Assembly: GCA_930979925.1 (NCBI GenBank) | Contig: CAKNIB010000008.1 | Span: 217-64,216, forward strand | Direction of reading: 5' to 3' | Origin: an uncultured Clostridia bacterium | GTDB lineage: Bacteria; Bacillota; Clostridia; Christensenellales; UBA1242 | DNA length: 64,000 nt | Shown: positions 17,153 to 51,925 of the stretch, piece after piece | Numbering within the stretch: the first letter of the stretch is position 1 | Layout of the letters: every line of letters starts with the position of its first letter | Notes under the pieces: generated by a model | What the model saw: only the letters and a program-made list of their open reading frames with translations | What the model was told of the DNA's origin: nothing | The model's database searches: none | Program-made: the position numbers and the translations under genes

Positions 17153-20100
17153 ATGAGAAGTGTATTTAGATTTTTATCATACTCTTTATTATACATTATC
17201 ATTGCGGTGGCTTCAGCGTATGGGGTCATCACTATTTCTATGAGCAATTATACTAGAGAGCTTAACGCGTCAAATAATAGCGGTGGTGGGTCGCAAGAGA
17301 TTGTTATACCAGAAGAGATTTCTTCCATGTTTGAAAAAATCACCTCCTCCCCGGCGCTTGGAATAGAACTTGAAGTTGGCGTGCAGGCGGGAGAGACTAA
17401 TATCGACATCCTTGTTGACGGCGAAGTTGACTTGTCAGCAGGGGTTGATAACCTTGCCGTAGCTGCAGACATAGCCATACTTTTAAATGGCAGTCCTATA
17501 AATCTTGACCTAACTTATCAAAACGGTAACCTATATCTTGAGATGTTAAACAACAAGTTCTTTATAGCAACCGATAATTTGCTAAGCTCGGTAGACCAAA
17601 TCATGACACTACTTAACGTTGAAATGCCTGAGCTTGGTATCGACCTTGATAGTCTGTCGCTTGACACTATTATGGGCTTCTTTGCAAATTATGAGGAAAG
17701 TGTCAATGAAGATGGAAGCTTAACTCTTAGTGTTGCCCTTCCAGTTGGAGACAACATCAATCTTGAGCTTATTACAACATCTGACTATACCTTAACTGGA
17801 ATTGGTCTTGAGCCAATCAGTATTGAAGGCACAAGCATTGAGGCGCAAGGACAATTACACTATCTTGTAGAGTCAAGCATTCCTACTTTAGATAGTGAAG
17901 ACTACATTGACCTTACAAATGTAATTGATTTAGCTTGTGGTGTTATCAACTATGTAAAACAAGACAACTTTGCGCTGGAGCTAAACTTTAAATATCAAGA
18001 TGTTGTTTTAAATGGCGACATTCTATTCTCGCTAAATGATAAGAAGGCGCTTGTAAAGTTAAATATTGAGGAATATGCTGTCAACCTATTATATATAGAT
18101 AATAATATATATTTAGAATTTAACAATATATTTGTTAAGTTTGACCTTAGTCAGACAAATCAGCTTTTTGAGCTTTTGAGTAAGTATTTTGACATTGATA
18201 TCCCAAGTCAACTTATCTCTTCAATATTTGGAGCTATTGAAAGTGGCGATTTCTCTGAAGTTATTGATAGCGCTGGGCTAGCAGATTTTGACCTTACTCA
18301 ATTTGATTTTTCTAGCATTGACCTTGGCATTCTTAATAGCATAGAAAAAAACGGCAATATTACCACAATATCAATCGAGGAAATCGGAGATATATTGGTA
18401 ACCATTGACCAAGGCAGTTTATCGCAGATTGCTTTTGATGGTTTTGGAATAGAGGCAGATTTAAGCGTAATTGACTACTACGAGTACAGTTTATCGCAAA
18501 ACCAAGGCGACTATGCCGACATTAGCTTGTTATTACCAACCATCGATAATGTGCTCGGATTGCTTCAAAACAACACCTACTCTGGCGTGATTTCTGCCAA
18601 AATTGGCGATTTTAACCTCGATATAAACTATCTTTTACACCGTGGAGAGAGTACGTTTATTACCCTGTCAACAACTTTACTCGGACAGGACATCAAGGCA
18701 ACTGTTATTGATGGCAAAATATATGTTGAGATTTCTGATAGCAAAATTGTAGCTACTCTTGATAATCTTGGAAATGTAATAAATCAGCTTGTTTCAACCT
18801 TCAGTAATAGTCAGGCTGTTGGTGGTAATGGTGAAAGTCAGCTAATAGATGTTGACAGTATCCTTGATAGCTTGCTTGAAATAATTAACCCTGATGTAAA
18901 CCCTAAACTTATCACTAAATTTACCACAACTGAAAATGGTGTTGCTATTACCCTTCTTGATAAATATAACATTACCCTTTCAAACTTCTCAAATCAACTT
19001 GATGTTGCGTTTAACTACGACAGCATTGACGTTAAAATAAACGTTATTGGAAGTGAGCAAAATATTGTAGCTCCTGTATTAAACGATGAAGAATATACTC
19101 CTATCGAGGACATCGCAAACACTATAATCAATGTTTACAACTATGTGCTTGATGGTAAGTTCTATATTAGTCTTAATGCAAGCTATAAAGATTTAGTTGT
19201 AAGTGGCGGTATCAACTATGATGAGAGCGGTTTGAGTGCTACTATCACCCTAACCTATAAGAATTTAACCGCAAATGTGATATTCTATGAAAATAGTTTG
19301 TATGTTACAGCTGAGAATATCAAACTTGTATTTAACCTTGACGATATTGACTACGTAAAAGCATTCTTAAATGACTACTTCGGATTGGATATCGAGAGCA
19401 TGCTTCAAGAGCTTTTAAGTGGAGAGCAAAATAGTGATGTAACTGAAGACGGAAAAACTTCTGAAAGCGTTGAGGAGGCTTCTGACAACAAGCTGCTTGA
19501 TATGCTAAGTGGACTTCTTGGAGAAAAGTCGATTGAGGAGATTATTGCTGAGGCAAAACTTGCAATCACTTCTGACAATATCTCTTTAACTGCGCTTGAT
19601 GGGCTTCAAGTTGACATCCTTTTAAGTGGCAATATGATTGACCAACTCGCAATCAAGTATCAAGATATCTCTGCAAGTGCAAGCATCAACAAAGAGCCAA
19701 TCAGTATTGGTGTCAACGCAAGTGAGTATTACAATATTATTGACCTTGTTGACATCGTCAAAGGTGGAGTTGACCTTGCAAGGCAAAAGCAAATAGGTTT
19801 AAGTTATGATGTGACCTATAAAGAAATTGCTCTTTCTGGCAATATATACCTTGACCTTGAAAGTAAGTCGGCAAAAATAGTTGTAAATTACAAAGATATT
19901 ACTGCTAACGTTATTCTTATTGATAATGTGCTCTATCTTGAAGCGTATAACCTTTATGCAAAATTTGGGCTTAGTGATATTGGAAATGTTACTTTGCTTA
20001 TTGAAAAGTACTTCGGTGTTGATATGCCTGATGAGCTTATTGCAAAACTTGTCTCTGTAATAGAAAGTGGTGACTTATCACAACTTTTAGAGAGCATTGA

Positions 20101-23100
20101 CACCTCAAGTGTTGACCTTTCTTCTATCGACCTCTCAGTTGTAGAAGGCATTGTAAAAGTTGAAGACAAAACTATAGTTTCTTTAGCTGATATTGGAGAC
20201 ATAACAATATCTATGACTGAAGGCAAGTTAAACTCTGTAGGCTTTGTTGGCTTTGATATTACTGTAAATATATCAACAAGCACATATCAGACAATTTCTC
20301 TTTACTCACCTATTGAAAGCTATATTGACATAGCTGACCTCTTGCCTACCCTTGACAATATCTTAGCGATACTACAAAATAACACCTTCTCTGGAAAGAT
20401 TAACCTAATTTATGGTGACTACTCGTTTGATGTTGACTATATAATTCATACTGGAGATAACTCTTTTGTAACGCTTTCAACTACCATATTTGGTCAAAGC
20501 ATTGTAATTAACATTATTGAGAATAAAGTCTATATAGATGTTAGCGAGAGCAAAATTGTATGTGACCTTGACAATATCGGCAATGTTATCGATAAAATTT
20601 TGGCTAAATTTATGCCAGAGCAAGAAGCGCCAAGTTTTGATTTAAAAGAAGAGCTTGATAGTCTCTTGGATGTAAACAACAATCCACTTCTTATCACAAG
20701 TTTTGTAAAGAGTGAAAATGGCATAAGTCTTGCTATCCTTGACAAAATATTTGTATCGCTTGGCAATGGTGATAAATCCTTGACCATCGATGCTAATTAT
20801 CAAAACATTGACATTTCTGCAAGTTTAAAAGCAAGTGAAGAAACATTAGCTCGTCCTGAAATTGTCGGACAGTATACTCAGATTGAAAATATTGTAGATA
20901 CTGTCATAAATGTATATGATTATGTTGCAAGCAAAACCTTCTATGTATCATTTAATGCAAGTTATCAGGATATCGCGCTTGTTGGTGGAGTCAACTATGA
21001 CGAAAGTGGTTTGAGTGCTACTGTTACCCTAACCTACAAGAATTTAACCGCAAATATTATACACTATCAAAACAGCTTATATATCACAGCTGAGAATATC
21101 AAACTTGTATTTGACCTTGACGACATTGACTACGTAAAAGCATTCTTAAATGACTACTTTGGACTAGATGTTGAGAGCATGCTTCAAGAGCTTTTAAGTG
21201 GCTCTAAGCCAAGTGAAGATGTAGCAAGTGAAGAAACTCAAGATGTAGCTAACGAAACAGCTTCTGAAAGCGGGCTACTTGATATGCTAAGTGGTCTACT
21301 TGGTGGTAAGTCAATTGAGGAGATTGTTGCTGGAGCTTCATTTAAAATAACTGACAATATTATTAGCCTAACTTCTCTTGATGGTCTAAAAATAGACATA
21401 TCTCTTGAAAATAATATGATTTCAACTGCATATGTTGAGTATATATTGCAAAGAGAAAGCGACAACAGTGCAACTGAAAGTGAGCCCGCAAGTCAATCAA
21501 AGATTATTTTTAATGCTACGATTGAAGATAGTCCACTTGTGTTTAACCCTGTTGGAGAGTTTACTGATGTTGCTGGTATTCTTAATTATGTTGAGCTTTT
21601 CATGCAATATGTTGAGACCAAAAAGCTTGAGCTTGGAGTTGACCTAAATATTGATGATGACAATATAACTGGAGCGCTTCAACTTGATTTAACCTCTACC
21701 CTAATGATGAGCGCAAGTTTGACATCAAATACTATAGAAAACTTTGATATCAATATTAACATTGAAAAAGACGAGACTGGAAAGCAAATGCTGTACGTCG
21801 ATTATAGCGGACTTTGTCTCAAGATTGACAACTCAAACTTCAATGAAATACTTTACATTCTACTTGAAGTGCTTGGTATTGATACAACAAAGATACCTTT
21901 CTTAAGCGAAATAGACCTTGACCTTAACTTCTCGCAAATTGACACAGACATTGCAAGTATTGACCTCTCTATCGAAGATATTATAAACATGCTTAAGATG
22001 GTTAAGAGCATAAAAGATGAGAATAATGCCCTTGTCATCACGCTTGATGGAGGAGCAATCTTTGGTAACGATAATGCTGAAGACCTTATGATTTCTCTTC
22101 ACAAAGAAGGCGGGAAGATTAGCAAGCTTGTCATTGCAAACTGCTACCTTAACAGCGAGCTTTCTGGCAAGATTGGTGCTACTATTACCTTTAATGAAAT
22201 CACTGAGTTTAAGCATGTTGATAATAGCAAAAATTATATTGATATCTCTGGTTCTAATGAGCTTATTAAAGCGATTGTCAATATGTCAAACGACACCGAC
22301 TTCCATGTGCACGGTTCGCTAAATGTTGTTGGAAACCTAGCTGGAATTGAAATCAAATGGAATGTTCCTTTTGATATCTACATTAAAGCTGTTGCTAAAG
22401 GTAAAGTTGAAATTTATGGCGTTATTGGTGAAATTCCAACCATGGTTGGTGTTAACAATGATGTGCCTTACAAGTTTGATGACACAGAAAGTGGCTCGAA
22501 TAGATATCTTTACTTCTATTATCAAGACGATTATATCTACCTTTATAGGTCGGAGACTATTGGTCAATTCTTTGGTAGTGGCAGGACCTATGAAAAATGT
22601 ACTAAAGTTTCTGTAGACACCTTCTTTGGCAATATTATGTATTATGTGCAATATTGTTTCGGCTTCACTGATACAATTATGAATGCAATCATTGAGTCTA
22701 TGAACAATCCACGTACTGAGCCTATGGATATGAGCAATATCATTACTTCCTTCGTGGTACAGGATAACACTAATTTTGCTGTTGAGCTCAATATGCATGA
22801 GCTTACTAACAACCCTGACCTTGACAAGTTGAGTCTTACCCTTGGGCTTAGACAGGATAGTGAAGGCAAAAACTACATTGGCGATATGACCGTTGCGCTT
22901 AATATGCCTCTTGCTGATATCTTTACCCTATATCTAACTAGCGATGATATCACTTTGGTTGATTATGGTAAAGAAGTTGATATGACTCCGCTGTATGATT
23001 TTATTAACAACTATAAATACCCTAACGAGTCTGAGTGGGAAGCAAGTGATGGCGAGTGGAACATGGTATCAGAGACGCTCTACACCATTAACTTTGAAAG

Positions 23101-24313
23101 CAATAGTGAGCAGACAATATCTTCTCAAACATATCACTATAAAGACGCGCTTGAGCTGCCAGTTTTAAGTGATTATGTTGTAGATGATGGCAAAACTAAC
23201 ACCTATTACCACTTCGTTTCTTGGCATACAAGTGAGGATTTGTCAAATGAAAGCGTATTTGACTCAACCACAATGCCTCGTGGTGATATAACGCTATATG
23301 CTAAGTGGACTACTAATACCACAACCTACTACACAATAGATTTTGTTACAAATAGTGAGCAGAAATTTGATAGCATAACTAAGCTTGAGGGCGAGGCAAT
23401 CACTCTGCCTGTACTTACAACAAAAGAGGAATCTGACGAAAACACTACCACCTATTATGAGTTTGGTGGATGGTATACCACTTCAACCTTTGACGAGGGA
23501 AGTGAGTTTAACGAAAGCATTATGCCTTCAAATAATGTCACACTTTACGCAAAGTGGAATCTTGTTAAAACTGAGTATACTCGTTCGGTTAATATCTATG
23601 ATGGCGACCAACTTTTAACAACATTGCGTGTTAAAGCGGGAGACGTGATAGACTTCTCTACCCTTTCAAATGTAAGTGACACTACTAAGTTCTATTATGA
23701 CAAAGAGTTTAAAAATCAGATGGTTGATTTCACAATGCCTGATAATGATATAAATGTCTATATTAGAAATATGTACAAAGTTACATTTACAAGCTTGTAT
23801 GGCAATACCTCGACTGTTACCTACTCACTTTATCAAGGCGAAAGCATTACTGAGTTGCCAGCTCAATCAAGTTATGTCTATGATGATGGCACGCAAACAG
23901 TACAGACAACTTATACCTTTAACGGATACAATGTGACAACAAATGTTATGCCAAATCATGATGTGACTTTTGAAGCTGACTGGACTGTGACTGAGAAAAA
24001 GTATTACACTATCACTTTTGATATTCTTGACAATGATGTGTCTCTTCATATTAGTCCATGGAGAGGCAACGCAAAACTCTATTATAATGGAGTGGAAACA
24101 TCTACTATGTCTTATCGCTTCCTTGAAGGACAGGTTGACTTAAATGCTTTTGTAGCTAGATGTAAATATAGAGCAGTTCTTTATTACTATTATATCTTCC
24201 AAGGTTGGAAAGGTGCTGACGAAAACGGATACTACAATTTAACTGGTGATGTAACCATTGAAGCGTCCTTCTCATCGTTACAATCTGGTAAGGATGGATA
24301 TGATAGAAACTAA
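17153..24313 (+). CDS. giant (2386 aa) N-terminally membrane-anchored repetitive surface protein with C-terminal Listeria-Bacteroides (Flg_new) repeats
   Basis: Uninterrupted 7.2-kb ORF with RBS AAGGAT. N-terminal TM is FLSYSLLYIIIAVASAYGVITI. There is a ~590-600-aa tandem super-repeat. Five C-terminal repeats have the pattern YTINF..G....Y.F.GW.....F.....MP..DITLYAKW. Confidence 0.85.
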   Translation: MRSVFRFLSYSLLYIIIAVASAYGVITISMSNYTRELNASNNSGGGSQEIVIPEEISSMFEKITSSPALGIELEVGVQAGETNIDILVDGEVDLSAGVDNLAVAADIAILLNGSPINLDLTYQNGNLYLEMLNNKFFIATDNLLSSVDQIMTLLNVEMPELGIDLDSLSLDTIMGFFANYEESVNEDGSLTLSVALPVGDNINLELITTSDYTLTGIGLEPISIEGTSIEAQGQLHYLVESSIPTLDSEDYIDLTNVIDLACGVINYVKQDNFALELNFKYQDVVLNGDILFSLNDKKALVKLNIEEYAVNLLYIDNNIYLEFNNIFVKFDLSQTNQLFELLSKYFDIDIPSQLISSIFGAIESGDFSEVIDSAGLADFDLTQFDFSSIDLGILNSIEKNGNITTISIEEIGDILVTIDQGSLSQIAFDGFGIEADLSVIDYYEYSLSQNQGDYADISLLLPTIDNVLGLLQNNTYSGVISAKIGDFNLDINYLLHRGESTFITLSTTLLGQDIKATVIDGKIYVEISDSKIVATLDNLGNVINQLVSTFSNSQAVGGNGESQLIDVDSILDSLLEIINPDVNPKLITKFTTTENGVAITLLDKYNITLSNFSNQLDVAFNYDSIDVKINVIGSEQNIVAPVLNDEEYTPIEDIANTIINVYNYVLDGKFYISLNASYKDLVVSGGINYDESGLSATITLTYKNLTANVIFYENSLYVTAENIKLVFNLDDIDYVKAFLNDYFGLDIESMLQELLSGEQNSDVTEDGKTSESVEEASDNKLLDMLSGLLGEKSIEEIIAEAKLAITSDNISLTALDGLQVDILLSGNMIDQLAIKYQDISASASINKEPISIGVNASEYYNIIDLVDIVKGGVDLARQKQIGLSYDVTYKEIALSGNIYLDLESKSAKIVVNYKDITANVILIDNVLYLEAYNLYAKFGLSDIGNVTLLIEKYFGVDMPDELIAKLVSVIESGDLSQLLESIDTSSVDLSSIDLSVVEGIVKVEDKTIVSLADIGDITISMTEGKLNSVGFVGFDITVNISTSTYQTISLYSPIESYIDIADLLPTLDNILAILQNNTFSGKINLIYGDYSFDVDYIIHTGDNSFVTLSTTIFGQSIVINIIENKVYIDVSESKIVCDLDNIGNVIDKILAKFMPEQEAPSFDLKEELDSLLDVNNNPLLITSFVKSENGISLAILDKIFVSLGNGDKSLTIDANYQNIDISASLKASEETLARPEIVGQYTQIENIVDTVINVYDYVASKTFYVSFNASYQDIALVGGVNYDESGLSATVTLTYKNLTANIIHYQNSLYITAENIKLVFDLDDIDYVKAFLNDYFGLDVESMLQELLSGSKPSEDVASEETQDVANETASESGLLDMLSGLLGGKSIEEIVAGASFKITDNIISLTSLDGLKIDISLENNMISTAYVEYILQRESDNSATESEPASQSKIIFNATIEDSPLVFNPVGEFTDVAGILNYVELFMQYVETKKLELGVDLNIDDDNITGALQLDLTSTLMMSASLTSNTIENFDININIEKDETGKQMLYVDYSGLCLKIDNSNFNEILYILLEVLGIDTTKIPFLSEIDLDLNFSQIDTDIASIDLSIEDIINMLKMVKSIKDENNALVITLDGGAIFGNDNAEDLMISLHKEGGKISKLVIANCYLNSELSGKIGATITFNEITEFKHVDNSKNYIDISGSNELIKAIVNMSNDTDFHVHGSLNVVGNLAGIEIKWNVPFDIYIKAVAKGKVEIYGVIGEIPTMVGVNNDVPYKFDDTESGSNRYLYFYYQDDYIYLYRSETIGQFFGSGRTYEKCTKVSVDTFFGNIMYYVQYCFGFTDTIMNAIIESMNNPRTEPMDMSNIITSFVVQDNTNFAVELNMHELTNNPDLDKLSLTLGLRQDSEGKNYIGDMTVALNMPLADIFTLYLTSDDITLVDYGKEVDMTPLYDFINNYKYPNESEWEASDGEWNMVSETLYTINFESNSEQTISSQTYHYKDALELPVLSDYVVDDGKTNTYYHFVSWHTSEDLSNESVFDSTTMPRGDITLYAKWTTNTTTYYTIDFVTNSEQKFDSITKLEGEAITLPVLTTKEESDENTTTYYEFGGWYTTSTFDEGSEFNESIMPSNNVTLYAKWNLVKTEYTRSVNIYDGDQLLTTLRVKAGDVIDFSTLSNVSDTTKFYYDKEFKNQMVDFTMPDNDINVYIRNMYKVTFTSLYGNTSTVTYSLYQGESITELPAQSSYVYDDGTQTVQTTYTFNGYNVTTNVMPNHDVTFEADWTVTEKKYYTITFDILDNDVSLHISPWRGNAKLYYNGVETSTMSYRFLEGQVDLNAFVARCKYRAVLYYYYIFQGWKGADENGYYNLTGDVTIEASFSSLQSGKDGYDRN

Positions 24314-25604: not shown

Positions 25605-25649
25605 ATCACTCTCCCCTTGACTACAATTTTACCAAATGACCGCAGATAT

Positions 25650-25678
25650 AAAAAAGGAAGAAATGTCGTTTTCTTCCC
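25650..25678 (-). terminator. intrinsic terminator after LRR gene A
   Basis: Minus strand: GGAAGAAA-ACGACA-TTTCTTCC followed by TTTTT. Confidence 0.65.
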
Positions 25679-25699
25679 TTTATTGTCTAATTATAGCTA

Positions 25700-26773
25700 T
25701 TAAGCTATTGCGGTGATTTTGTCAGCGTAACTAGACCAGACACTTGCCGTTTTGTATGCGTCCACACTCTCTGCTGGAACGTAGATATTGGTTAATTTTG
25801 GCACTATAGATAATGTAGCTGAATTTAGTGTAGGAGGAATGCTTGCAAAAGATGTTATAGATATTAAATTTGTGCAATTTTGAAAAGCCATATCTCCTAT
25901 ACTTAATATCGTTTTAGGTAATTCAATAGATATCACACTATAACATTCTTGAAAAGCCATATAACCTATACTCTCGACACCATCTGGAATATCTATATTT
26001 GTTAAATTTTCACAAGCCATAAAAGTAAAGTCACCTATTTTTTTTAAGTTTGATCCATTCTCTGTAATAAAGTATTTTAAATTTTTACAATTATAAAGTG
26101 ACATGCTGGCAGTTTCTGTTACAGGATATGTTTTCCCATCTAGTTCATTTATTATAGTTGCAGGAATAATAGCGATTTCTGCAATATCTTTGTTTAAACA
26201 GTTAGTTATTCTAGCTTCAGAATCACTGAAAGAATACTCTAGCTCGGCTAAAACACCATTATAAATATTTATAGTAATCATAGATAAATCTATTTCTGCA
26301 AGGTTTGGATTTATAACCTGTAGTTCTAATGTAGTTGTAACTTCAGTTGTAGACGTTATCTCGGTGATCGTCTCAGAGTTTGCAGTAATCATGTTAGTTA
26401 TATATACCTCAACTCCTGATACACTACTACTTAACTCGCTATAATCAGCAGTGACAATATAAGAATCAGTAGTGGTATTTATTATATCAAAATACAATGC
26501 AAATGAGCCGTGGTTGTTTTCAAAATTTCCTACATTAAAGTTAAAGTCGCCATTGATGTATCCTGGAGTAAAGTTTAAAACAACTACTGGGTCAGAACCC
26601 GACTCTTGCATCCTTACCTCTTTGACCCATAGGCTTTTATCGGTTACGTTAAAGTTAACACTACCATTCATAGTAATCGTTTGACTGCTTGCGGCAAGTA
26701 CTCCTGTTATAACTAATCCTAGTACTAATACAAATGCCCCTACTAAAGATATTAGTTTCATCCTTATGCTCAT
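25700..26773 (-). CDS. secreted BspA-type leucine-rich-repeat (LRR_5) protein, paralog A
   Basis: 357 aa. Signal-like N-terminus is [27 protein letters not shown] conserved ~170-aa N-terminal domain is shared with 46932-47897. C-terminal repeats include IGDFTFMACENLTNIDIPDGVESIGYMAFQEC..ISIELPKTILSIGDMAFQNCTNL. Confidence 0.85.
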   Translation of the reverse strand: MSIRMKLISLVGAFVLVLGLVITGVLAASSQTITMNGSVNFNVTDKSLWVKEVRMQESGSDPVVVLNFTPGYINGDFNFNVGNFENNHGSFALYFDIINTTTDSYIVTADYSELSSSVSGVEVYITNMITANSETITEITSTTEVTTTLELQVINPNLAEIDLSMITINIYNGVLAELEYSFSDSEARITNCLNKDIAEIAIIPATIINELDGKTYPVTETASMSLYNCKNLKYFITENGSNLKKIGDFTFMACENLTNIDIPDGVESIGYMAFQECYSVISIELPKTILSIGDMAFQNCTNLISITSFASIPPTLNSATLSIVPKLTNIYVPAESVDAYKTASVWSSYADKITAIA

Positions 26774-26795
26774 TTTATCTCTCCTTTTAATTTTT

Positions 26796-26820
26796 GCGCC
26801 TTCGGCGCCGGCTAAAAAAT
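26796..26820 (-). promoter_or_regulatory. conserved GC hairpin block in the 5' UTR of LRR gene A
   Basis: GCGCC-TTC-GGCGC plus the flank GGCTAAAAAAT. An almost identical block lies at 48036-48060 upstream of paralog B. Confidence 0.5.
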
Positions 26821-26854
26821 AGAAAAATTATATCTATATTTTTAGTGATACTCT

Positions 26855-26882
26855 ATATTACCCCCCCCGAATTTTTTGTCAA
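26855..26882 (-). promoter_or_regulatory. promoter TTGACA-16-TAATAT with a G8 tract in the spacer
   Basis: Minus strand reads TTGACA AAAAATTCGGGGGGGG TAATAT. The C8 run occupies 26861-26868 on the plus strand. It lies ~80 nt upstream of ATG 26773. Confidence 0.55.
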
Positions 26883-27016
26883 GCAAAATTGCGTCATTTT
26901 CGAAAAATGTTTTAAAAACTTAAATTGTAAAAAAAATAAAAACAATTTAATAAGAAAAATGAAGCTTACCTATGCAAGCAGTATCAGCGTTTGCGTTTTG
27001 TTGTCTTCTTAAATAT

Positions 27017-27134
27017 GAGGCTTGCCTATTGTTAACTTTTAATGAAAAGTTAACAATAGAATGTTGTGACAGTCGAAGATTGGCACAACATAAAAGATAC
27101 CGAAGGGTTTTCCTTCGGTCTCTTTGCAAGCCTC
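27017..27134. repeat. 118-nt conserved structured element (closing stem plus three hairpins), copy A
   Basis: GAGGCTTGC...GCAAGCCTC encloses hairpins at 27026-27059, 27062-27090 and 27095-27123. About 83% identical to 48537-48654, with compensatory changes in the stems. Confidence 0.6.
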
Positions 27135-27138
27135 GTGG

Positions 27139-46931: not shown

Positions 46932-47897
46932 TTATGTTCTAGACATTCCGTAAACGCCAGAAGAACCTTTCAGCCATTCGGCAGCAGTTGATGGATCTGC
47001 AAGAGTTTCTTCATCAATATCTCCATGTGCAAATGTCCAGCCTGTTGGAATCTCATAGTAAGCTAAAGCTAAACTATTGCAATTAGTGAAGGCACCAGAA
47101 CCGATGGCTGTCACACTCGATGGAATTGTTATTGAGGTTAAACTGCTACAACCACTGAAAGCATATCCTCCAATACTTGTCACACTATCTGGGATTGTAA
47201 TTAATGTTAAACTACTACATCCGCCGAATGCATTATTACCAATGGCTGTCACTGTAGCAGTTCGTCCATTATACTGAACTGTTTCAGGAATGATTACAAC
47301 TTCTGCATCTGGACTACAACTTGCAACACTTACACTTTGTCCACTTCCACTATTAAGTGAATAGGTTAATGTACCTAAAACGGTTTCATTGATATTTATT
47401 GTTATCATTGATAAATCTATATTTTCAAGATTTGGGTTTGATACAGTTAACTCTAATGTTGTTGTAATAGGTGTTTCTGAGGTTATAGTTGTTACAGTCT
47501 CTGTATTTGCTGAAATTAGGTTAGTTATATTTATCTCTATACCAGTTATACTACTTAGTCCACTATAATCTACATTAACTAAATAAGTGTTAGTTGTAGT
47601 ATTTATTATATCAAAATACAATGCAAATGAGCCTCGGTTATTATTATGATCGCCTACATTAAAGTTAAAGTCTCCGTTGATGTAGCCTGGAGTAAAGTTT
47701 GAGATTATGACTGGGTCCTCTCCTGCCTCTTGCATTCTAACCTCTTTTACCCATAGGCTTTTATCATTTACATTAAAGTTTACACTACCATTCATGGTTA
47801 TTGTTTGACTACTTGCGGCTAGCACTCCAGCTACTACCAGTCCAAGGACTAGAATAAAAGCACTTATTAATGACAGCAGTTTTAATTTGATTGACAT
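46932..47897 (-). CDS. secreted BspA-type leucine-rich-repeat (LRR_5) protein, paralog B
   Basis: The ORF opens at 47909, but GGAGG precedes ATG 47897 (MSIKLKL...). The N-terminal ~170 aa are ~70% identical to paralog A. The C-terminus has [59 protein letters not shown]. Confidence 0.85.
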
Positions 47898-48035
47898 TTT
47901 TACCTCCATTTTCTTTAGTATTTGATAAATTATTTAAATTATTACCTAGTTTACAATCTTATTTTATATTTAAAAATAATTGTCACTTGGGTGACGATTT
48001 AGCAAATTTCAAAGAATTTAAAATTTGCTAATTTC

Positions 48036-48060
48036 GCGCCTTCGGCGCGGGCTAAAAAAT
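48036..48060 (-). promoter_or_regulatory. conserved GC hairpin block in the leader of LRR gene B
   Basis: (C)GCGCC-TTC-GGCGC(G) plus GGCTAAAAAAT, matching 26796-26820. Confidence 0.5.
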
Positions 48061-48395
48061 ATTTTACATTTCGCGTTATGCTATAACACCCCTTGCGTCT
48101 AACCCCATAAAATCTCACGATTTTATGGGCACCCGACCGGGTCCTTATTACGAAGAAAATTCCAGAGGAATTTTCGAGGAGGTCGGAGGGGGAGTTCTAC
48201 CCCACAAATTATAAAATTTGTGGGGAGCCCCGGGGTGGGGAACCGAAAATATTTTTTATCACGAAGTGTAAAAAATATGTGTTTTAGCGGTTAGACGCGC
48301 ATAAGCGCGTCGTGCCCGCGTTTCATTTTTCTTAAATTAAAAAATTTAAGAAAAATGATAAAACTTGGGTTCCACCCTAAAAGCGATAGCTTATT
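48061..48395. other. ~335-nt GC-rich, hairpin-dense insertion between promoter and GC hairpin of LRR gene B (structured RNA or MITE-like element)
   Basis: Perfect hairpins lie at 48105-48128, 48155-48175, 48200-48225, 48294-48311 and 48323-48358. There is a 10-nt long-range complement between 48095-48104 and 48289-48298. Absent from the equivalent position of copy A, where only 34 nt (26821-26854) occupy this position. Confidence 0.5.
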
Positions 48396-48420
48396 TTACC
48401 CCCCCCGAATTTTTTGTCAA
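48393..48420 (-). promoter_or_regulatory. promoter TTGACA-16-TAAAAT with a G8 tract in the spacer (twin of 26855-26882)
   Basis: Minus strand reads TTGACA AAAAATTCGGGGGGGG TAAAAT. The C8 run occupies 48399-48406 on the plus strand. Confidence 0.5.
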
Positions 48421-48536
48421 GCGATTTTACGCTATTTTTGAAAATTGTTGAAAATTTTTGCATGAATTCTTAATTTCAAAATCTTTTATACGACCGCATG
48501 AAGCGAGCGTGATGGATTTGGTGTCACGCCAAGCAT

Positions 48537-48654
48537 GAGGCTTGCCTATTGTCAGCTTTTATAAAAAAGTTGACAATAGAATGTTGTGACAACCAAAGGT
48601 TATTACAACATAAAAGAGACCGAAGAATTTTTCTTCGGTCTCTTTGCAAGCCTC
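48537..48654. repeat. 118-nt conserved structured element, copy B
   Basis: Same length and architecture as 27017-27134. Lies 138 nt downstream of the groEL stop. Confidence 0.6.
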
Positions 48655-48791
48655 GTGACTGAGGTGTTAAAATAAAACTCTTGTCTCGTGGCTGATATTA
48701 TACTAAACTGATGATATACTAAAATGTAGTTTATGTTATATTAATAATAATGATTGATAAGTATGACAACTATTAATAATCAACTCTATTA

Positions 48792-51659: not shown

Positions 51660-51925
51660 AGATCGCGAAATTCCAAATCCGTTACCAGAACCACCTGAAG
51701 CGAGCGTGGCGAAAGTCGTGCGAGCGTTCTCGCGTGCGACCAACGGGAGCGTGAGGATAATGGAGCGATAGCGACACCACAAAAAGCCCGTGCGTCCAGC
51801 GGGAGCGTGGGCGAGAGCGACGTCGAGGCAAAGCCGAGGTGGAGCGGATGCGAGCGTACGAGCAAAGCGAGTGTGCGAGCAAAGCGAGTGTGCGAGCAAG
51901 AGTGAGCGAAGCGAACGAAGTAAAA
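51660..51925. repeat. GC-rich degenerate ~16-17-nt tandem-repeat block
   Basis: A perfect 17-nt unit AGCAAAGCGAGTGTGCG occurs twice (51861-51877 and 51878-51894), flanked by degenerate copies of the form GCGAGCG(T/A)... The local GC content is far above its surroundings. Confidence 0.6.

Follow-up and report, generated by a model that had tools for sequence, protein, structure and literature searches.

The closest described systems control surface-protein genes through simple sequence repeats, most of them promoter homopolymers. In Neisseria meningitidis porA and in Treponema pallidum tp0126, the latter with an optimum of 17 nt, a poly-G tract lies between the -35 and -10 elements, and a gain or loss of 1 nt moves the spacing to either side of 17 nt and determines how strongly the gene is transcribed (PMC7864442). 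The tprE/G/J/L genes encode paralogous putative surface proteins, and their promoters contain poly-G runs about 7-11 nt long, eight or fewer G being permissive; in these genes the tract sits a few nt upstream of the TSS and an extra site for a CRP-type regulator is present (PMC7864442). In Mycoplasma hyorhinis, each vlp gene has a poly-A tract in its promoter (PMC10502178), and the genes have in common a conserved homopolymer promoter, leader and N-terminus, together with a divergent external region (PMC10502178; PMC11868660). The BspA-like proteins of Ca. Mycoplasma girerdii are controlled by SSRs, with length variation detected in metagenome data; these SSRs are dinucleotides within the coding sequence, where frameshifts turn translation on or off (PMC5476646). 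Phase variation in Clostridia and gut commensals is described for invertible promoters, for example in C. difficile (PMC11868660). A limited literature search found no homopolymer-in-spacer switch in Clostridia.

Here we describe a G8 tract in the spacer of a promoter-like sequence, together with its twin and its counterparts in other assemblies. The window, by which we mean the whole stretch of DNA that was analysed, is 64,000 nt long; the GC content of its 2-kb windows ranges from 31 to 42%, and that of the genome is about 36%. On the minus strand, the initial annotation had read TTGACA-AAAAATTC-G8-TAATAT, and a direct reading of the letters finds this sequence at 26882-26855 as described. 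Written in full, this site, site A, is TTGACA-AAAAATTCGGGGGGGG-TAATAT, its G8 appearing as C8 on the plus strand. The G8 does lie wholly inside a 16-nt spacer, as had been claimed (spacer 26876-26861, G8 26868-26861), and the distance from promoter to the ATG at 26773, put earlier at about 80 nt, measures 82 nt after the -10 box. The second G8 reported at 48399-48406 is likewise in place, inside GCTTGACAAAAAATTCGGGGGGGGTAA, and marks site B. The elements of the two sites are as follows.

26877..26882, minus strand: -35 hexamer TTGACA of site A, invariant at all five paralogue loci described below
26861..26868, minus strand: G8 of site A, making up the 3' half of the spacer (26861-26876, 16 nt)
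26855..26860, minus strand: -10 hexamer TAATAT of site A, its TAnnnT positions conserved across loci
26883..26902, minus strand (48421-48440 at site B): block AAAATGACGCAATTTTGC directly upstream of the -35 hexamer, recognised by its conservation
26774..26854, minus strand: 5' leader of site A, with a conserved TATAATTTTTCT-ATTTTTTAGCC block
48415..48420, minus strand: -35 hexamer TTGACA of site B, from identity to site A and a promoter scan
48399..48406, minus strand: G8 of site B, in a 16-nt spacer
48393..48398, minus strand: -10 hexamer TAAAAT of site B, from the promoter scan
47898..48392, minus strand: leader of site B, about 495 nt, with an A-type start followed by inserted GC-rich, hairpin-forming sequence

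The twins are identical over 27 nt (48422-48396 at site B), and their -10 boxes read TAATAT and TAAAAT, respectively. A scan with the promoter consensus scores site A at 10/12 and site B at 11/12, each being the best promoter-like site of its intergenic region. The earlier remark that no other G/C homopolymer is this long can be put more strongly, the two sites being the sole G/C runs of six or more in the 64 kb. Overlapping matches to G7 number four against 0.62 expected, a count reached by 1 of 100 dinucleotide-preserving shuffles; for this rarity, sites A and B amount to a single evolutionary origin, as they are paralogues of each other. The leader of site A also contains a small GC hairpin (GCGCC-GAAG-GCGC) and an RBS, AAGGAG, and the leader orthologous to that of site B is, in other strains, either 204 nt long or of the short A type. 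At one further locus (locus C, contig L022), the block upstream of the -35 hexamer is a perfect 16-nt palindrome, AAAATGACGTCATTTT; this block may be an operator or an UP element. In an alignment of five loci, a second conserved TATAAT is found 28 nt downstream of the box, so that the true start site is uncertain.

Both sites precede genes of a single protein family.

25700..26773, minus strand: gene A, 357 aa, with a hydrophobic helix at the N-terminus, a beta-sandwich specific to the family and a BspA/TpLRR-type LRR
46932..47897, minus strand: gene B, 321 aa, a BspA LRR paralogue of gene A

The two products share 56% identity, their first ~180 residues being conserved and nearly collinear, and the start of gene B at ATG 47897 is backed by an RBS, GGAGG, 5 nt upstream. 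A BspA-type LRR had been proposed for gene A and is borne out by a match to PF13306 (E = 2.7e-20); against a gathering cut-off of 27.7, this LRR_5 profile scores 73 and 72.9 bits for genes A and B, respectively. For gene A, the structure predicted with AlphaFold from an alignment of 31 family members (mean pLDDT 77.7) comprises a helix at residues 3-29, a beta-sandwich at about 33-172 and an LRR solenoid. The closest PDB folds, T. pallidum TpLRR and leucine-rich cell-surface proteins of gut bacteria, cover the LRR half only; beyond it no convincing PDB fold was found, and the N-terminal domain gave no Pfam or NCBIfam match. In a search of 5.8 billion sequences, the family of this N-terminal domain comprises 42 clusters. 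Its C-terminus is variable and often a BspA/TpLRR-type LRR, and P0016, P0017, P0021 and P0028 have the N-terminal domain with no LRR_5 match on record. The family is predicted to be located at the cell surface.

To place the two sites among their counterparts, DNA was gathered around family members and neighbouring housekeeping genes in other assemblies; the window's exact GroEL matched its own contig only, and a near-identical GroEL variant yielded five more observations of site B. Across further metagenome assemblies of this organism, the same box around the G run (the G-box) stands in front of at least five scattered paralogue loci.

Locus A: flanked by MreB and MinD; paralogue gene A (357 aa)
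Locus B: flanked by GroEL and a short-chain dehydrogenase (adh_short); paralogue gene B (321 aa)
Locus C: flanked by a 206-aa gene and Spore_YtfJ, just past the left end of the window; paralogue P0016
Locus D: after a DUF1540 gene; paralogue P0028
Locus E: flanked by Lactamase_B and AspRS; paralogue P0021

P0017, which lies behind a thioredoxin gene, is without the G-box, and the promoter is therefore not universal in the family. In the five-locus alignment, 80-85% of columns per 20-nt window are invariant from about -60 to the -10 box, compared with about 0-15% further upstream. The TTGACA does not vary and the G run is unbroken at all five loci; changes in the -10 box are confined to its tolerant middle positions (TAATAT, TAAAAT, TACAAT), and point changes occur within the A-rich half of the spacer (AAAAATTC, AAAAAGTC, AAAATTTC), which gives the consensus GCTTGACA-A(4-6)(T/G)(T)TC-Gn-TAnnAT. 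Such a pattern of conservation is what would be expected of a working promoter of the sigma-A/sigma-70 type. The contigs of the organism carry spore genes (Peptidase_A25, Spore_YtfJ, DUF1540), and these, together with the MAGs that share the box, suggest that the host, an uncultured gut bacterium, is a Clostridia-like Firmicute and spore-former.

At three of the loci, A, B and E (at E in L062, L064 and L065), the G-box is preceded at a distance of about 110-130 nt by a second conserved feature, a structured element of about 120 nt.

27012..27137, minus strand: 120-nt structured element, copy 1, upstream of promoter A
48537..48657, minus strand: 120-nt structured element, copy 2, upstream of promoter B

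Its fold consists of a 9-bp outer stem, GAGGCTTGC/GCAAGCCTC, around three hairpins, the first of which is terminator-like. Among eight variants, 6 of the 44 pairs show compensatory double changes, and a few G-U pairs favour the gene strand. A search of the whole window against Rfam at gathering thresholds returned only tRNA-Trp, and matches at E up to 1 in both upstream regions were sub-threshold noise, which places the element and the leaders in no described Rfam family. Partial tandem copies are present in L062, and the element persists in L015 and L017, where promoter and gene are lost. It could be a complex terminator or insulator, or else a small MITE-like repeat.

The module extends beyond this organism. 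Species-representative genomes were scanned with the exact 20-nt pattern CTTGACAAAAAATTCGGGGG, outside which the box variants AAAAAGTC and AAAATTTC fall, and three other Clostridia MAGs (Eubacteriales, uncultured Clostridia and Oscillospiraceae) proved to share an identical 15-nt -35 block, CTTGACAAAAAATTC.

L002, 2660-2700: G11-TATAAT, preceding a BspA-like protein whose N-terminus has a hydrophobic, signal-like segment
L003, 4660-4700: G10-TAGAAT, preceding a protein with several hydrophobic, membrane-spanning-like segments
L004, 6008-6050: G11-TATAAT, preceding an ABC-transporter leader, the transporter having a perfect promoter of its own as well

Across these species the homopolymer is kept and its length is not (8 versus 10-11), which argues that selection acts on having a run and not on one particular sequence, and is what one would expect of a run kept for its mutability. 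The three MAGs suggest a wider promoter class in Clostridia. The pattern also occurs in Crocosphaera watsonii (L005 6768-6790, L006 and L007), where CTTGACAAAAAATTC is followed by G6, G5 or G8 and then TAACAT; the three assemblies represent one locus, and the downstream product starts with a hydrophobic, signal-like segment. Because about one chance 20-mer is expected in 596 Gb, we read this match as convergence, apparently a poly-G promoter tract of naturally varying length in a cyanobacterium. A scan of viral contigs for the box found none.

The annotation's idea of a variable tract can be set against strains of the organism itself, and the tract is not invariant: it measures 7, 8 or 9 across 33 independent assemblies, each counted once, at the five loci. 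In total, G8 accounts for 24/33 observations, G9 for 6/33 and G7 for 3/33, so that the spacer is always 15-17 nt. The counts of G7, G8 and G9 are 1, 4 and 0 at locus A; 1, 7 and 1 at locus B; 0, 6 and 2 at locus C; 1, 3 and 2 at locus D; and 0, 4 and 1 at locus E. Each locus is thus polymorphic, with G8 as its mode. By strain, site A has G7 in L010 and G8 in L008, L009 and L011; by assembly, site B has G7 in L072, G9 in L021 and G8 in six others. Six locus C contigs from different samples agree throughout 824 nt (487 nt in the one that is truncated) except in having G8 or G9; they are distinct strains, as the housekeeping genes on either side differ between them by many SNPs. Lengths were read from consensus contigs. 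Three of the G9 calls (L027, L055 and L056) come from contigs at 3-5x coverage, where a homopolymer miscall is possible, and some variants may share ancestry, the minimum number of events being about seven.

Runs of A/T at the same loci served as a control. Relative to the reference, 7/20 G tracts differ, versus 6/46 A/T runs of 7-8 nt, a marginal difference (odds ratio 3.6, one-sided Fisher p = 0.045). Polymorphic observations make up 13% for A/T runs versus 27-35% for G runs, about a threefold excess for G, and by tract all five G tracts are polymorphic versus about 3/10 A/T runs. The statement that only the G tract varies was dropped, as the A/T control runs vary too, and was cut back to this modest, roughly threefold excess. 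These comparative data argue for a mutable tract, frequent reversible switching being beyond their reach.

We interpret the G run as a slipped-strand dial or phase switch in the promoter spacer, a reading that we hold to be reasonably probable; the wording that the tract warrants is "rheostat-like or phase-variation-like". Slipped-strand mispairing during replication would gain or lose one G, moving the -35/-10 spacing to 15 nt with G7, 16 nt with G8 and 17 nt with G9. The strength of a sigma-70 promoter is expected to depend on whether its spacer is 15, 16 or 17 nt long, and G9 would presumably be the strong, G8 the intermediate and G7 the weak state. Transcription of each of at least five paralogues could in this way be tuned up or down independently, which would result in a population mixed in its surface-protein repertoire. 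The proposal takes the TTGACA/TAnnAT pair to be an active promoter and supposes length changes to be frequent and reversible. We envision that the 120-nt element, with its terminator-like hairpin, probably shields the switch from read-through out of the housekeeping genes.

The alternative that fares best is a fixed promoter feature, in which G8 is kept for contact with a regulator or for spacer geometry, and G7 and G9 are neutral or mildly deleterious indels or base-calling errors; we regard it as unlikely, though it deserves serious weight. It would account for the predominance of G8 at all five loci (the 24 of 33 given above) and for strain L052, in which one nucleotide has been lost ahead of the run and another gained behind it, both G8 and the 16-nt spacer staying in place. 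These offsetting indels, together with the modal G8, look like stabilising selection on one state. The length polymorphism of A/T runs of the same length fits it too, and the conserved, partly palindromic block upstream of the -35 hexamer suggests a protein-binding site. However, a fixed role would be served by an interrupted, stable sequence, and uninterrupted G runs are otherwise absent from these 64 kb of a genome with 36% GC. The G10-G11 runs that follow the same -35 block in other Clostridia, keeping the homopolymer and not its length, also speak against a fixed feature, as does the polymorphism of five out of five G tracts in comparison with the A/T runs. On balance, we retain the slipped-strand dial or switch as the preferred reading.

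The loci are variable in more than tract length. Among ten strains with identical MreB (L008-L017), the MreB-MinD interval, which corresponds to 25605-27138 of the window, is hypervariable: the alleles at site A encode 357 aa or 351 aa or, in L011, are a pseudogene that has lost 106 nt internally, and in some strains the cassette is absent, GC-rich degenerate repeats filling the gap and the last ~60 nt of the gene being left. The cassette of locus C is missing in the window's own strain, where the site is filled by repeats, and alleles at one locus can differ greatly (321 aa versus 456 aa). The GC-rich degenerate repeats, with units such as GCTCGCACACTCGCTTT, occur at 51690-51925 of the window, at about 3700-4100 in L012-L017 and at about 2100-2320 in L042-L049, and contigs often end within those that fill such "empty" cassette sites. 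Next to the site A region, the window also encodes a 2386-aa, internally repetitive protein (17153-24313, plus strand) with C-terminal Listeria-Bacteroides repeat (Flg_new) domains, whose called length varies by strain (1322, 1500 or 2386 aa).

Two site-B orthologues, L020 and L070, are chimeric, with B-type sequence upstream and an exact A/E-type leader downstream; the paralogues therefore exchange sequence, which indicates gene conversion. As the junction falls at the box, the 27-nt G-box might be mainly a block of homology for recombination or gene conversion among cassettes, the run having no regulatory role. The allelic differences and missing cassettes just described are in keeping with this idea, as are two contigs (L073 and L074) that end just past the box. 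We nevertheless consider it improbable that this is the main role of the box: homologous recombination does not need a homopolymer, and the geometry of the box is perfectly that of a promoter, correctly spaced from every gene. Moreover, a homology block is compatible with the slipped-strand switch rather than an alternative to it.

A broader and decidedly doubtful proposal joins these observations into one portable platform, made up of the 120-nt insulator-like element, a partly palindromic operator, the poly-G promoter, the conserved leader, a conserved N-terminal anchor and swappable C-terminal domains. Such a platform would sit at several housekeeping-gene junctions, its C-terminal domains being swapped or deleted by dedicated recombination. 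If true, phase variation and cassette exchange would be combined in one system, of a kind not described for Clostridia.

Reiterative transcription is known at Bacillus subtilis pyrG, and transcription might similarly start inside the G run from a weaker upstream promoter, ATGACG-17-AAAAAT, so that reiterative transcription would sense nucleotide pools without any mutation. Inspection does reveal this promoter-like pair, with 4/6 matches in each hexamer and ATGACG within the conserved block, yet the -10-like AAAAAT stops just 2 nt short of the run, locus B has ATAGCG in place of ATGACG, and a far better score goes to the canonical TTGACA/TAnnAT pair on either side of the run, which leaves this reading with very little probability. 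An assembly or polishing artefact, raised in the initial annotation and compatible with the low coverage of contigs behind some length variants, is scarcely credible and was rejected, since several independent studies, with different assemblers, recovered the tract together with its flanks, both at the five loci and in three further species.

In its mechanism, the proposed dial or switch would resemble porA and tp0126, with which it has in common a G homopolymer lying wholly in the spacer of a sigma-70-type promoter of a surface protein, here a predicted one. It differs from them in its Gram-positive-type, Clostridia-like, spore-gene-bearing host and in its shorter tract of 7-9. Unlike in porA and tp0126, the modal spacer of 16 nt is one below the optimum, and one promoter heads at least five paralogues. 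As in tprE/G/J/L, poly-G promoters are found across a paralogous family, and a partly palindromic block adjoins the -35 hexamer here; unlike in those genes, the tract lies between clear -35 and -10 hexamers.

Taken as a system, it comes nearest to vlp of M. hyorhinis, the likeness lying in paralogues that have a common homopolymer promoter and a conserved 5' end with a divergent remainder, as the locus comparison found, and independent switching of the paralogues would, as in vlp, yield combinatorial surface variation. The tract is poly-G here in contrast to poly-A, however, and the variable part is an LRR or other domain in contrast to short tandem repeats. Unlike the vlp lipoproteins, the proteins have no lipobox, their N-terminus being without cysteine, and unlike the vlp cluster, the genes are scattered in five chromosomal contexts among housekeeping genes; the missing lipobox and the unclustered genes exclude the system from vlp membership. 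With Ca. M. girerdii it shares the BspA/TpLRR-type LRR class, the many paralogues and a repeat whose length varies in metagenome data, but the repeat is here a promoter-spacer homopolymer and would act on transcription.

If real, the sequence TTGACA-N8-G(7 or more)-TAnnnT would provide a simple marker for contingency genes in gut metagenomes, and would let population heterogeneity be read straight from existing read sets. The mechanism itself is known from porA, tp0126/tpr and vlp; what would be new is probably the host, a Clostridia-like spore-former.
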